This document shows positions 47,034 to 64,000 of a stretch of 64,000 nt of DNA, one piece after another. Numbering within the stretch: position 1 is the stretch's first letter; every line of letters begins with the position of its first letter. Both the position numbers and the translations under genes were made by a program. Under the pieces are notes generated by a model. The model worked only from the letters and a program-made list of their open reading frames with translations, was not told where the DNA came from and made no database searches. Origin of the DNA: a virus; IMG/VR virus record IMGVR_UViG_3300042898_004347, positions 1 to 64,000 of that record. One strand, 5' to 3'.

Positions 47034-49073
47034 TCACTTTGAAGTAGCTCTAAAAACTCCATCCCAGGATGGTCCAGGATCCGCTTTTTCTAGGTCAGCA
47101 ATGCGTTCCAGCATCATGTCGTAGTAATCATTGAGGAAATCCATGTGAGCTTTTAAATCAACTCCCAATTCTTTTGCTTTTTTCCAATTGCGCTCCCGAT
47201 AGTAAGTCATGAAACTGTCATGGGATTTGCTGTAGACGCGTGTGCCCTTTTCAAATACCGTGTAAATCTTCACACCTTCTTTCTTACCCTTTACCGCGAT
47301 GCAATCTAGTTCTAGCGTGGGATACACGTCCTTCACATATTCTCGCGTGATGGGACCAATTACAAATTTGACGCCGTAGGGCTTCGACTGACCTTCCAAG
47401 CGAGAGGCAAGATTCACCGAATCTCCGAGGCAGGTATAATCGAACCGTTGAGTCGAGCCCATATTACCCACAACAACGGTACCAGTATTCACGCCGAGAC
47501 CCATTCCGAATGCAGGAATACCTTCCTTCGTCACCTCATCGTTGAATGCTTTCAGACTTCCTAGCATTGTGAGACCCGTTTCAACCGCATGAAGAGCATG
47601 GTCCTTGTCGTCGAGTGGTGCGTTCCAGAAAGCCATCTGTGCATCACCAATGTACTTGTCCAGCGTTCCCTGACTATCCAGAATGGCCTGTGTCATTGCC
47701 GTCATATACCGATTCATAATCTTTGTGAGACCCTGAACGTCCTTGCCATAGTGTTCCGAGATTGCGGTGAAGCCACGAACATCTGTAAACATGATTGATA
47801 GCTCTCGAGACTCGCCTCCCAACTGTAAGAGGTCGGGATTCTTTTGCAGTTTCTCAACCATGGCTGGAGATAGGTACGTTCCGAACTGTTTCTTGATCTG
47901 CTGCTTGAGTTTAAACTCCATGACGAACCGCATGAAGAGAGAACCAGTCCATACAAGGGATGCGGTACCCACAACCCAGGTATAGTCGGCAAGGAGTCCT
48001 TTATCGAATAAATGAAAGCCGTAATACACTGGAAGGCATACGGCAATAAGATAGATGCCAAGATTTAAGGCGTAGCCCAAAAAGGAGATTGCTCCGATTA
48101 GAATAAGTGCTGCACCCACACCAATTGCAATCTCGTAAAGATCGAACTCTGCTGGGCGTTCAAGTCGGTTACCATCGAGCAACATCTGAAGTGTTTGGAG
48201 ACTGAGTTCGTGTCCGTACGCCGTACCCAATGGAGTCGCAACGGTATTTGCAAGCCCCTCGGCCGTAAGAGCGATCACTACAATCTTGTCCTTCACGTGC
48301 CATTCATCATCGGTGTATGGAACTGATTTAAAGGTATATTTAAAGTTGATCCAGACGCGACCATTGCCATCAGTCTTAATTGGCGGCGTACCAGGGACGC
48401 GAATGGCAGACACTCCCGATTCTGTTACCTTAACCTGAAAGCTGGGTTGGTTACCAAAGACACGGAGGATTTCCAGTGGCATTGTGGGATACTTTTCTTT
48501 TTCAATCTGAATCATGAGCGGTAATCTACGCACCACGCCATCAAGCTCTGGAGCCGTCAATAACATACCCACGCCCGTGGACGCCTCACCAATCTCTTTG
48601 AGTGGTCCGATTGCAGCTGGGTAATCAAATAGCCAGTCATCCGTCGTGCCGCCGATTGTTGCAACGCCTCTTGGAATTGGAACGCCTTTACCCTTTAATG
48701 ACGCCGATTGACCCGTAATTACAGGAGCCTGACTCAGCATCTCAATAAATTCCTTATCTCCGCCAAGACGGTCGGGTTCCGCGAAAATAATAGGTAGCAC
48801 AACACCGGTGGCGCCTGACTCCATGGCTTTTCTGATTGCGCCTGCCAGTTCGGTACGCTTCCATGGCCACTGTCCGTTCTTTTCCAGTGCCTTTTCATCA
48901 ATTTCCACGATCACAATGTTATCCGATACCACCTTGTCCTGCTTTCTCTGATAGTAATCCAGACCTTTGAGACGCATTACCTCGATTGGATACGGGTTTG
49001 CAATGCGGAGACCCACGGCAACTGTGAGAAGCATAAGACCAACAAGAAGGATTCTGAATGTGTGTTTGTTCAT
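47034..49073 (-). CDS. CHASE2-domain membrane adenylate cyclase (class III)
   Basis: N-terminal TM, IVIVEIDEKAL...GQWPW.R and DGVVRR (CHASE2), three TMs, FTDVRGFT, DKYIGDA, YTCLGDSVNLASRLEG. Confidence 0.95.
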   Translation of the reverse strand: MNKHTFRILLVGLMLLTVAVGLRIANPYPIEVMRLKGLDYYQRKQDKVVSDNIVIVEIDEKALEKNGQWPWKRTELAGAIRKAMESGATGVVLPIIFAEPDRLGGDKEFIEMLSQAPVITGQSASLKGKGVPIPRGVATIGGTTDDWLFDYPAAIGPLKEIGEASTGVGMLLTAPELDGVVRRLPLMIQIEKEKYPTMPLEILRVFGNQPSFQVKVTESGVSAIRVPGTPPIKTDGNGRVWINFKYTFKSVPYTDDEWHVKDKIVVIALTAEGLANTVATPLGTAYGHELSLQTLQMLLDGNRLERPAEFDLYEIAIGVGAALILIGAISFLGYALNLGIYLIAVCLPVYYGFHLFDKGLLADYTWVVGTASLVWTGSLFMRFVMEFKLKQQIKKQFGTYLSPAMVEKLQKNPDLLQLGGESRELSIMFTDVRGFTAISEHYGKDVQGLTKIMNRYMTAMTQAILDSQGTLDKYIGDAQMAFWNAPLDDKDHALHAVETGLTMLGSLKAFNDEVTKEGIPAFGMGLGVNTGTVVVGNMGSTQRFDYTCLGDSVNLASRLEGQSKPYGVKFVIGPITREYVKDVYPTLELDCIAVKGKKEGVKIYTVFEKGTRVYSKSHDSFMTYYRERNWKKAKELGVDLKAHMDFLNDYYDMMLERIADLEKADPGPSWDGVFRATSK

Positions 49074-62175: not shown

Positions 62176-62251
62176 TGGTGGACCAGACAGGGATCGAACC
62201 TGCGACCTTCTGCTTGCAAAGCAGCTTCTCTACCAACTGAGATACTAGCCC
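62176..62251 (-). tRNA. tRNA-Ala (TGC)
   Basis: 76-nt cloverleaf, G3:U70, TTCGA T-loop, encoded CCA. Confidence 0.95.
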
Positions 62252-62258
62252 GAATTAA

Positions 62259-62927
62259 TTAGAACTTGAGGGTAACAGCCGAACGGAGACCAACCGTGGT
62301 CTTGTCAAGATTACCGTCCTGGAGGACAACAAATCCAGCCGAGAGGACTTTCCATGAAGCATCAAGTGAACCGCCGTAGTAGGCATTGGTGTACTTGATT
62401 TCCTTGATGGTACGTGGGAGAGCATCATTTGCGTCGGTATAACCGGCAAATACTGCACCCGTGAGACCGCAGTTCTTACCAAACTTTACAGCCTGGGAGA
62501 ATTTAGCTTCAAGGTTTGAAAGGTCAGATTCAACATCGTAACGACCAGTAACGGACAATGGTCCTTTACCGACCGAAACGAATGGACGGAAGTGTCCATT
62601 TGAATCCTTACCTGGGCTATTCAACATCGAATACTCGGAGCCAACTTTTACGTTAGCAAGAGTCGAGAAGAATGTGTAACCACCAAGGAATTTGACCTGA
62701 TAGAAATCAACAGAATCAATACCGTTGAGATGGGTATCAGCTGATGCTCCAACATTAAAACTACCGATGGAATAGTCGACTGCAGTCACAGCGGATCCTT
62801 TTGCATCAGTAACTTTGCCAAAGTCAATTCCCTTTTCCTGGTAACCTACTGTAAGGGTTCCTGCCGCAAAAGCGGAAACGGAAGCAGTTAGAATTGCGAG
62901 TAACGTTAGTTTGATTAGTTTGTTCAT
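62259..62927 (-). CDS. Outer-membrane beta-barrel protein (porin-like)
   Basis: Signal peptide (VSAFA), alternating beta-strands with aromatic ends, C-terminal Phe (VTLKF). Confidence 0.75.
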   Translation of the reverse strand: MNKLIKLTLLAILTASVSAFAAGTLTVGYQEKGIDFGKVTDAKGSAVTAVDYSIGSFNVGASADTHLNGIDSVDFYQVKFLGGYTFFSTLANVKVGSEYSMLNSPGKDSNGHFRPFVSVGKGPLSVTGRYDVESDLSNLEAKFSQAVKFGKNCGLTGAVFAGYTDANDALPRTIKEIKYTNAYYGGSLDASWKVLSAGFVVLQDGNLDKTTVGLRSAVTLKF

Positions 62928-63013: not shown

Positions 63014-63108
63014 TGAATCACGTGTAAGGCTCGAACTTACATCTTCAGTTTCGTTCAGGATGTACTTGTCCTGTAACACTGAAATCTTATCCTTTAGACG
63101 AACGTGAT
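63014..63108 (-). ncRNA. tRNA-like RNA with 28-nt hairpin-containing anticodon loop
   Basis: Acceptor ATCACGT/ACGTGAT, D GTCT/AGAT, anticodon stem TCAGT/ACTGA, T arm GTAAG-TTCGAGC-CTTAC. Confidence 0.8.
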
Positions 63109-63300
63109 TTTTACTACTTTGTGATCTTCTATAGCCTCGTATTACTGATCTATTTTTAGTTGCACCGCGTTTCGTCGAAGCGCGCGAGGTTCAGTTGACA
63201 AGAAGCTTTTGTGCTATCCATGGTTTCGCTAAATTTCCTAGGGGATTATCCCACTAGGAAAGTCAAAATTAAATGTAAAAGAACTGAATTAACTATCTCT

Positions 63301-63329
63301 ATCCTAACAAAGCTGCATCAAAAGTAAAC
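63301..63329 (-). promoter_or_regulatory. Early promoter GTTTAC-17-TAGGAT driving non-coding region
   Basis: Same promoter family; no long ORF downstream. Confidence 0.7.
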
Positions 63330-63337
63330 AACAAAAA

Positions 63338-63606: not shown

Positions 63607-63683
63607 TGGTGCTCATTGTAGGACTCGAACCTACGACCTATTGAATGTAAATCAATTGCTCTAACCAACTGAGCTAAACGAGC
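63607..63683 (-). tRNA. tRNA-Val (TAC)
   Basis: 77-nt cloverleaf, ATTGA-TT TAC AT-TCAAT, encoded CCA. Confidence 0.92.
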
Positions 63684-63695
63684 ATAAATAACACT

Positions 63696-63875
63696 ATGAA
63701 ACTCAAATTTTGCGATTATACCTTTACCCTAATGTCGAATGGTGATATTGTCATGGATGACGCAATCACTGCAGATAAACTTGAAGTTAAATCTGGGGAT
63801 TTATTTGAAACTGTTATTACCCCGGATGGGGTCGTAGTATTTCAAAAGAAAAATGGTGGACCTGAGGGGAGTTGA
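63696..63875 (+). CDS. Small hypothetical protein (59 aa, below cutoff), possibly AbrB-like
   Basis: CATAAATA at 63683-63690 then MKLKFCDYTFTLMSNGDIVMDDAITADKLEVKSGDLFETVITPDGVVVFQKK... Confidence 0.5.
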   Translation: MKLKFCDYTFTLMSNGDIVMDDAITADKLEVKSGDLFETVITPDGVVVFQKKNGGPEGS

Positions 63876-64000
63876 ACCCCTGTGTTCAGTACTTTTCCGA
63901 TAATTTTCTACAAGCTTAGTATTACTTAACAGTCCCCATGATACCGTAATACTGTATCATGATTGTTTTAGTGAGGATACGCATCTTGTACACCACTTCA
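63854..64000 (-). ncRNA. ssrA: tmRNA, 3' portion (partial)
   Basis: TAAGCTTGTAG...AGGGGTTCAACTCCCCTCAGGTCCACCA matches the tmRNA 3' pattern (Ala-type acceptor, T arm, no D/anticodon arm at tRNA spacing). Confidence 0.85.

Follow-up and report, generated by a model that had tools for sequence, protein, structure and literature searches.

Why would a bacteriophage encode, among its transfer RNA (tRNA) genes, an RNA that has all of the arms of a tRNA but a hairpin where the anticodon loop should be? The question is posed by a 95-nucleotide (nt) element, here called X, at positions 63014 to 63108 on the minus strand of a 64,000-nt stretch of viral DNA, the whole of which we refer to as the window; it comprises positions 1 to 64,000 of a 140,053-bp virus record of the IMG/VR type (IMGVR_UViG_3300042898_004347; 84% complete, 42.8% G+C). 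Comparison with related phages argues that X is very probably a real, selected, nondecoding RNA with the shape of a tRNA; that it might serve as a decoy for a tRNA-binding protein, or inhibit one, is a tentative proposal. The reading that we favor overall, to which we assign a probability of roughly 0.5, is that X would be a functional gene whose stable, tRNA-shaped, nondecoding product occupies a protein that recognizes tRNA bodies; a spliced, decoding tRNA is unlikely. The X family is undescribed, and its kind, that of nondecoding tRNA look-alikes, is known in outline.

A tRNA body with a hairpin in place of the anticodon loop

Read 5' to 3' from position 63108 on the minus strand, X has standard acceptor, D, and T arms and a 5-bp anticodon stem, with 28 nt instead of a 7-nt loop. 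The parts of the body, with the behavior of each in the alignments described below, are as follows.

63014 to 63108, minus strand: X, the whole RNA gene, 95 nt including the discriminator T (63016) and CA (63015-63014), defined by sequence, RNAfold, covariance model R1, and covariation
63102 to 63108, minus strand: acceptor stem, 5' strand ATCACGT, pairing with ACGTGAT (63017-63023), 7 bp; pairs 2-71 (CG/UA/UG) and 4-69 (GC/AU) change on both sides, and 98.8% of cells are paired
63084 to 63099, minus strand: D arm, stem GTCT/AGAT, loop AAAGGATA with A14, G18, G19, A20, and A21; invariant among near relatives
63078 to 63082, minus strand: anticodon stem, 5' strand TCAGT, pairing with ACTGA (63045-63049) and preceded by T26; invariant and 100% paired in 12 of 12 variants
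63024 to 63040, minus strand: T arm GTAAG-TTCGAGC-CTTAC, with a canonical T54 T55 C56 R57 A58 loop; three T-stem pairs change on both sides, and 100% of cells are paired

The acceptor stem is followed by T8 and C9, and the variable region is AGAT (4 nt). The minimum-energy structure predicted by RNAfold is exactly this cloverleaf, and X has the tertiary nucleotides of a canonical tRNA (U8, A14, G18 G19, T54 Psi55 C56, and A58); what it lacks is the 7-nt anticodon loop, the corresponding segment being 27 to 58 nt long across the variants. The original prediction for this locus had described a 95-nt tRNA-like RNA with well-paired stems, a 28-nt loop that folds into a hairpin, and a 3' end reading TCA, and both the sequence and RNAfold bear this description out. 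The 3' end is indeed T-CA rather than CCA, with which all 23 of the ARAGORN-called tRNAs of the genome end.

Standard tRNA searches do not recover X: it is not called by ARAGORN in default mode, and it has no match to Rfam RF00005 even at E ≤ 10. The intron option of ARAGORN, which the original prediction had proposed as a check, returned only 'tRNA-Cys(aca) i(32,13)', a call that we judged spurious because of its shifted stem, noncanonical intron site, and 13-nt variable arm. The genome already has a real tRNA-Cys(GCA), which ARAGORN misses. The variants of X in related contigs (given here by L numbers) L020, L022, L035, L012, and L032 are labeled 'tRNA-Arg(acg)' (94 to 96 nt) or 'tRNA-???(tacc)' by the same program. 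With covariance model R1, the X of the window scores 111.5 bits and the variants 86 to 116 bits; the true tRNAs of this genome score at most 26 bits.

The body is conserved like that of a true tRNA

Relatives were gathered in IMG/VR through the protein encoded by a 222-amino-acid open reading frame (ORF) next to X, through DNA patterns in IMG/VR and JGI metagenomes, through homologues of the 222-amino-acid protein in ENA, Logan, and JGI assemblies, and through a pattern scan of GTDB genomes. We collected 12 distinct variants of X, all from contigs of related uncultured phages, and aligned them in two ways, with MAFFT as usual (A2) and under the guidance of the covariance model (A3). Across the two alignments, 97.4 to 97.6% of cells are paired and 10 or 11 pairs change on both sides (in A3, 97.4% and 11 of the 29 pairs). 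Sliding the partner by one to three columns cuts the pairing to 24 to 43% (25 to 41% in A3 alone). Compensation extends to the tertiary structure: G19-C56 has become A19-U56 in L024, where a G-to-A change in the D loop is matched by a C-to-U change in the T loop. In the D stem, G10-U25 is replaced by A10-U25 in L025.

The rate of change is consistent with this picture. Among nine lineages, the body of X has a mean pairwise difference of 0.04 to 0.07 per site, compared with 0.087, 0.05, and 0.033 for the true tRNAs Val, Arg, and Lys at the same loci and 0.14 to 0.17 for the noncoding flanks, so that the body is two to four times more conserved than its surroundings. The body of X is thus under the same purifying selection as real tRNAs. 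Because it is as conserved as true tRNAs and its pairing is kept, X is a gene selected for a tRNA-like three-dimensional shape, and not a decaying pseudogene. The unconstrained decay of stems that characterizes tRNA pseudogenes is not seen; the suggestion in the original prediction that intact stems argue against simple decay therefore holds, as relatives, which might have shown random degeneration of the stems, show compensatory changes instead.

Removal of the insert does not yield a consistent anticodon

If X were a tRNA gene interrupted by an intron, orthologues would be expected to share one anticodon and identity, and under no fixed excision rule do they. Keeping 3 + 4 nt of the loop after in silico removal of the insert gives Arg(UCG) in five variants, UCA in six, and Arg(UCU) in one, and keeping 5 + 2 nt gives Val(UAC) in nine, Ala(UGC) in two, and Thr(UGU) in one; variants with different hypothetical anticodons have near-identical bodies. 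The earlier proposal that loss of 21 nt would create an Arg or Val anticodon does not extend to the relatives for this reason. Excision at the canonical 37/38 site would place C or U at position 37 in L012, L032, L024, and L025, and L024 has A at position 33. The sequence that follows the acceptor stem also varies (TCA, CCA, TTCA, CGTC, or CTAAA), whereas the true tRNAs of the phage all encode CCA. The phage already carries canonical tRNA-Val(UAC), tRNA-Arg(UCU), and tRNA-Arg(ACG).

Neither of two known structural classes of intron fits. A bulge-helix-bulge motif has two 3-nt bulges separated by a 4-bp helix, and every fold obtained for X shows a 3-bp helix with a bulge of 3 nt on one side and of 1 nt on the other. 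A group I intron ends in G and needs a ribozyme core of at least some 200 nt; the insert adds 21 to 52 nt to a 7-nt loop and ends in A, and X has no match to an intron in Rfam. A search of the 140-kb record (84% complete) for the splicing endonuclease EndA, RtcB, Rnl1, and Rnl2 (PF01974, PF01139, PF09511, and PF09414) gave no match, so the endonuclease and RNA ligase that had been suggested as something to look for were not found there. Together with the pyrimidine at position 37 in several relatives and the lack of an encoded CCA, these results speak against the short, protein-spliced intron that the original prediction listed as one possibility.

We also considered recoding of TGA in the phages whose X would become a UCA-type tRNA. 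This was rejected: TGA ends 19 of 38 nearby genes in these phages and thus serves as a stop, and no in-frame stops were seen in the alignable orthologues (0.4 to 0.9 kb of aligned protein per locus).

A fixed insert base and a fast-evolving tip

In the fold predicted by RNAfold, the insert stacks on the anticodon stem through the following elements.

63050 to 63077, minus strand: 28-nt insert replacing the anticodon loop (RNAfold; covariation)
63050 to 63052, minus strand: 3-nt bulge GAA on the 3' strand (fold)
63075 to 63077 with 63053 to 63055, minus strand: helix 1, GTT with AAC (fold)
63074, minus strand: bulged A on the 5' strand (fold)
63069 to 63073 with 63056 to 63060, minus strand: helix 2, CAGGA with TCCTG (fold and covariation)
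63061 to 63068, minus strand: terminal loop CAAGTACA, 8 nt (fold)

The same architecture is present in the minimum-energy folds of four variants and of L025; the arm of L024 was not counted as support, as RNAfold favors another pairing of its 47-nt insert. Common to the family is a fixed base, where a 3-nt bulge and a 3-bp helix are followed by a single bulged purine and a helix of 4 to 5 bp, and in which G32-C, U33-A, U34-A/G, the bulged A or G, and C-G are near-invariant (the bulged 'A35' is G in L027 to L029 and L031). Helix 2 is maintained with differing sequences (CAGGA/UCCUG, CGGG/CCCG, CCAAA/UUUGG, and CUGGG/CCCAG), and its pair 37 covaries through AU, GC, CG, and UA. Most variants have an insert of 27 to 28 nt; that of L024 has 47 nt, and those of L025 and L026 have 58 nt. 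The tip ranges from a loop of 7 to 11 nt to a 38-nt subdomain. In the distal 16 columns, the mean pairwise difference is 0.45, about three times that of the noncoding flanks, and the hairpin is still kept. The tip of each lineage contains a self-complementary tetranucleotide (GUAC, GAUC, UUAA, or CAUG in the window, L009, L012, L020, L024, and L025), for which a rough chance estimate, made after the fact, is below 1 in 1000; these tetranucleotides could either permit loop-loop dimers or reflect palindrome-driven mutation.

This behavior is the starting point for the alternative that survives best, although we consider it improbable: that the tRNA body is only a carrier that provides stability and precise processing, and that the hairpin is the effector, binding or imitating a variable host molecule such as the repeat of a CRISPR array, another defense RNA, or a protein. 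Rapid change in a hairpin whose stem is kept, a tip that grows from an 8-nt loop to a 38-nt subdomain, and tetranucleotides in every lineage that could support loop-loop pairing all speak for such an effector. Moreover, a 28-nt insert that starts with GTT and continues from its end into the anticodon stem as GAAAC recalls CRISPR repeats, if only superficially. However, a carrier has no need of the conserved Arg-type features of the body described below, and template-switch mutation, which can cause fast change in quasi-palindromes, could also explain the evolution of the tip.

The searches for a target likewise count against an effector hairpin. The phage genome holds no further copy of the window hairpin and no complementary site. 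An identical 12-mer lies inside a cyclase gene, and it is in the same sense; we took this sole match as chance and rejected an antisense target, and for want of a second copy a dispersed palindromic element was rejected as well. (The gene in question, at window positions 47034 to 49073 on the minus strand, encodes a 679-amino-acid protein in which a CHASE2 sensor domain [E = 4e-40] is combined with an adenylate/guanylate cyclase domain of class III [E = 1e-18].) When 185,579 species genomes were scanned for the window-type hairpin alone, no CRISPR array was found; the only matches were the phage contig in a metagenome-assembled genome (MAG), considered below, and one chance match in a coding region. 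Within the reach of that scan, mimicry of a CRISPR repeat, as by an RNA anti-CRISPR near-identical to the repeat of a host array, finds no support.

Probable origin from a tRNA-Arg gene and the gene neighborhood

X most likely descended from a tRNA-Arg(UCN) gene through an insertion between nucleotides 34 and 35, to judge from its similarities to other genes. The best non-X matches of model R1 are tRNA-Arg(UCU) genes of related phages (40 to 45 bits, against 26 to 30 bits for tRNA-Val), and in the Flavobacteriia genomes searched the model finds 75-nt matches at 45 to 50 bits, of which the one inspected is a tRNA-Arg(CCU). The insert is flanked by Arg-type loop nucleotides, G32 U33 U34 on one side and C35 N36 A37 A38 on the other, from which the tRNA-Arg(UCN) origin follows as probable; the junction GUU|CUAA of L025 equals the loop CUUCUAA of the phage tRNA-Arg(UCU) apart from nucleotide 32. 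X also has A20, which is an identity element for arginyl-tRNA synthetase in Escherichia coli. Some variants, however, have a T arm that matches the one in the neighboring tRNA-Val exactly, so the ancestry may be mosaic.

A comparison with the canonical tRNA-Arg (UCU/CCU/UCG) of phages and Flavobacteriia summarizes what was kept and what was changed. Shared are the D arm (TC-GTYY-AAxGGATA), A20, the 4-nt variable region, the T loop, and, on either side of the insert, the loop nucleotides U33 U34 | C35 N36 A37 A38. X differs in the 27 to 58 nt between U34 and C35, in having G32 where the phage tRNA-Arg(UCU) has C32, in the lack of an encoded CCA, in a variable discriminator, and in N36, which is G, A, or U.

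A broken tRNA-Arg gene is present in the same genome. At record positions 64880 to 65650 (minus strand), outside the window, a tRNA-Arg 5' half stops within the anticodon (CTTC|). Behind it come a spacer rich in TATAAATA, a tRNA-Arg(UCU) that is complete though divergent, and a 207-amino-acid ORF with matches to NUMOD3 and phage endonuclease I, both below threshold. The arrangement resembles a homing-endonuclease cassette equipped with a replacement tRNA, and to judge from the half gene and the cassette, these phages seem to have a recombination hot spot in the anticodon region of their tRNA-Arg genes.

X itself lies in a tRNA cluster at about 62.1 to 69.9 kb that is entirely on the minus strand and contains 23 tRNA genes called by ARAGORN plus a transfer-messenger RNA (tmRNA). 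The order around X is tRNA-Val(UAC), a 78-amino-acid ORF, a 229-nt leader, X, the 222-amino-acid ORF, and tRNA-Ala.

63607 to 63683, minus strand: canonical tRNA-Val(UAC), the upstream neighbor on the same strand as X (ARAGORN; Rfam, 75.1 bits)
63109 to 63337, minus strand: noncoding leader, 229 nt, between the 78-amino-acid ORF and X; ORF-free
62259 to 62927, minus strand: 222-amino-acid ORF between X and tRNA-Ala, the anchor for fetching relatives; no Pfam match
62176 to 62251, minus strand: canonical tRNA-Ala(UGC), downstream on the same strand as X (ARAGORN, Rfam)

The leader is probably part of one transcript with X. A sigma-70 scan of its 229 nt found no promoter match; its final ~45 nt, 5' of X, are kept in relatives, and the ORF-leader-X module recurs in L011 with identical spacing. 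As a partner for X, the 78-amino-acid ORF has little to recommend it: it has no Pfam match and is not beside X in L025. On the other side, X is always immediately upstream of either the 222-amino-acid gene or tRNA-Ala. In the L001 type it ends about 30 nt before the start codon of the 222-amino-acid gene, and in L008 and L011 tRNA-Ala begins 36 nt past X with no intervening gene.

These positions, together with the half gene, whose break is one nucleotide from the inferred insertion point of X, and the replacement tRNA-Arg(UCU) and 207-amino-acid ORF behind it, are what speaks for a second alternative, that X has no role in trans. It might be a cis processing signal, with ribonuclease P (RNase P) and 3'-end enzymes cutting the transcript of the cluster so that the mRNA or tRNA-Ala downstream is released, or a relic, a tRNA-Arg copy whose anticodon region is broken in the DNA and which is thereby immune to a tRNA-gene-targeting homing endonuclease. 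We rate this just behind a carrier function and again as improbable. Punctuation of a transcript needs the acceptor/T minihelix alone, and not the conserved D-arm contacts or the fixed base of the insert, and a scar at the DNA level leaves the selection on RNA pairing unexplained.

Other features of this neighborhood are of separate interest. The tmRNA gene covers window positions 63854 to 64000 and continues to position 64222 of the record (minus strand); its tag is GINKALSNFFGFAEEMPLAA, and relatives have the tags GIHKALSNFF…, GISNMLKSLF…, and DTYNSEYALAA. The tRNA-Cys(GCA) that ARAGORN misses has an odd D arm and is at record positions 68155 to 68224 (minus strand), outside the window, between tRNA-His and a tRNA-Met; it scores 32.4 bits with the Rfam tRNA model (threshold 29), and counting it, only tRNA-Lys is missing from the phage set (in a record that is 84% complete). 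In distant relatives, a gene of ~505 amino acids with a two-partner-secretion (TPS) domain directly precedes the homologue of the 222-amino-acid gene (L067:2493-4675, L070:466-2664, and L072:2480-4657), and the 222-amino-acid protein may accordingly be part of a secretion pair. In the clade of the window, X sits where the ~505-amino-acid TPS gene stands in these relatives.

Points against the favored reading, and less likely explanations

Several observations qualify or weigh against the reading of X as a selected, nondecoding RNA. None of 500 shuffles equaled the observed pairing, but this statistic is inflated by relatedness, as all of the variants come from one phage clade. The fold of the single sequence is not significant alone (z = -1.9), and so the evidence for pairing beyond chance rests on the comparison. 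Hypothetical excision yields a flawless 73-nt tRNA in 12 of 12 variants. The former loop nucleotides are overconserved for a mere helix, with G32-C never covarying, which fits a constraint on exons too. Finally, no tRNA of the phage reads CGG, which is used at 3.8 per 1000 codons, and a tRNA-Arg(UCG) would be useful.

The flawless excised forms and the missing reader for CGG also sustain the interrupted tRNA gene, in which the insert would separate nucleotides 34 and 35 of a tRNA-Arg(UCG), or 36 and 37 of a tRNA-Val(UAC), and proteins would excise the hairpin to give a decoding tRNA, for instance with a double cut of the RNase III type and subsequent joining by an RNA ligase. The Arg-like body with A20 points the same way, as does a tip that varies in length and sequence over a fixed base, like the introns of known pre-tRNAs. 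From the fold, the implied cuts, after U34 and after the A that pairs with U33, would be staggered by 2 bp and leave 3' overhangs, which is the geometry of RNase III. We nonetheless consider this route quite unlikely. Among near-identical relatives the anticodon would differ (UCG/UCA/UCU or UAC/UGC/UGU), and every second variant would suppress opal codons in phages where TGA stops 19 of 38 nearby genes. The A33 of L024, a G32 that, as the original prediction also remarked, is unusual in a tRNA, the variable discriminator without an encoded CCA, the lack of a bulge-helix-bulge, and the absence of EndA, RtcB, Rnl1, and Rnl2 from the record add to the difficulty, and to our knowledge no protein-dependent tRNA splicing has been described in bacteria or their phages. 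A more specific version, to which we give slightly less credence still, is that the hairpin is a new kind of intron, 20 to 50 nt long, lodged in the anticodon of a phage tRNA-Arg, with U34 on one side and C35 on the other. A double-strand-specific nuclease would remove it, leaving 2-nt 3' overhangs, and a ligase would close the tRNA again. If this were true, it would be the first case in a bacterial system of tRNA splicing that depends on proteins, with a conditional opal suppressor in the UCA variants.

The weakest explanation, a decaying tRNA pseudogene with a chance insertion, is suggested by the failure of ARAGORN (default) and Rfam to call X and by the loss of the 3' CCA, but is very hard to sustain given compensatory changes in the acceptor, T, and insert helices and in the tertiary pair and a body conserved like true tRNAs.

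Distribution of the X family

X is present in phage contigs whose 222-amino-acid protein is 53 to 100% identical to that of the window, and in two contigs it stands directly before tRNA-Ala without the 222-amino-acid gene. The more distant relatives L004, L067, L070, and L072 (42 to 47% identity) have tmRNA and tRNAs but no X. A blastn comparison of the 2-kb region with 50,697 phage records, for cultured relatives, matched flanking tRNAs only; Rfam 15 has no family for X, and we found no published description of it in the literature. As far as we have searched, the X family is confined to one clade of uncultured freshwater phages.

One contig carries a hint as to the host. L042 (CAIYQV010000235.1; 4.2 kb) contains tmRNA, tRNA-Val, an X identical to that of the window, and tRNA-Ala, and has been assigned to a MAG of uncultured Flavobacteriia, sampled in Lake Erken; the binning is either a host hint or an artefact. 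On L055, a further contig of this bin, the tRNA-Arg(CCU) gene does not encode CCA, whereas the tRNAs of the phage all do. Among 101 genomes of the family of this MAG, the sole X is that on the binned phage contig, and no host-encoded homologue was found.

A proposed role and comparison with known RNAs

We return to the favored reading, in which X is a stable, nondecoding look-alike of a tRNA. X would be cotranscribed with the neighboring tRNAs, its 5' end would be trimmed by RNase P and its 3' end by host 3'-end enzymes, and a host enzyme would then add CCA. The last step is plausible, as the organism of the MAG bin must add CCA itself, given that the tRNA gene on L055 lacks it. The mature RNA might then occupy a protein that recognizes tRNA bodies, being unreadable by the ribosome and uncuttable in the anticodon loop; the likeliest target would be a host tRNA-directed nuclease, or else another tRNA-binding factor of defense or quality control. 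A mimic or decoy, with anticodon nucleases or synthetases as putative targets, was among the possibilities raised in the original prediction, and as a class a mimic fits X, with its strongly conserved L-shaped body and sealed anticodon end.

Three groups of RNAs offer comparisons. YrlA and other bacterial and phage Y RNAs (Rfam RF02553) are nondecoding and resemble a tRNA in their T and D arms and in a stem similar to the acceptor, and like X, YrlA is found in phages with many tRNAs and a tmRNA. YrlA is a substrate of RNase P and of the CCA-adding enzyme (Chen et al. 2014, PMC4201824). Its topology is the opposite of that of X, as YrlA ends on the 'anticodon' side and has a closed acceptor end. 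The YrlA motif GNCGAA(N)G is only loosely similar to the corresponding sequences of X (AACGAA, GACAAA, and AACUAA), which do not match it, and X has no match to YrlA in Rfam. Docking to Ro60, as for a permuted Y RNA, was considered and rejected: the phage record has no Ro60/TROVE gene, and in the candidate host family such a gene was found in just 1 of 101 genomes.

The intron-bearing pre-tRNAs of archaea and eukaryotes share with X an extended anticodon arm, a 3-nt bulge adjoining the anticodon stem, a nucleotide 32 that is paired with the insert side, and a distal part whose length varies. X differs from them in having no second 3-nt bulge and no 4-bp central helix, in its inconsistent anticodon and bacterial setting, in the pyrimidine 37 that a 37/38 site would give in several variants, and in the lack of an endonuclease or ligase gene in the record. 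In engineered tRNA scaffolds, as reported by Ponchon and Dardel in 2007, and in RNAs of the mascRNA type, as in X, the anticodon loop of a tRNA body gives way to a helix that is foreign or closed; the product is stable and accepted by the enzymes of tRNA processing. X, by contrast, is natural, phage-encoded, and evolutionarily conserved and has a fixed motif at the base of its insert.

Implications

Standard tRNA finders miss or mislabel genes of this kind, as the ARAGORN labels 'Cys(aca)', 'Arg(acg)', and '???(tacc)' illustrate, and automatic annotation of these phages will bear inconsistent, false tRNA names. The X family is also a clean comparative case: its 12 variants covary clearly, it probably arose from tRNA-Arg, and its tip changes faster than neutral sequence. 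The tRNA genes of phages are now partly understood as countermeasures to host nucleases that cut tRNAs. A conserved phage RNA that retains the full tRNA body with a sealed anticodon, if it is indeed a mimic, would represent a different tactic, in which a tRNA is open to binding but closed to both reading and cleavage.

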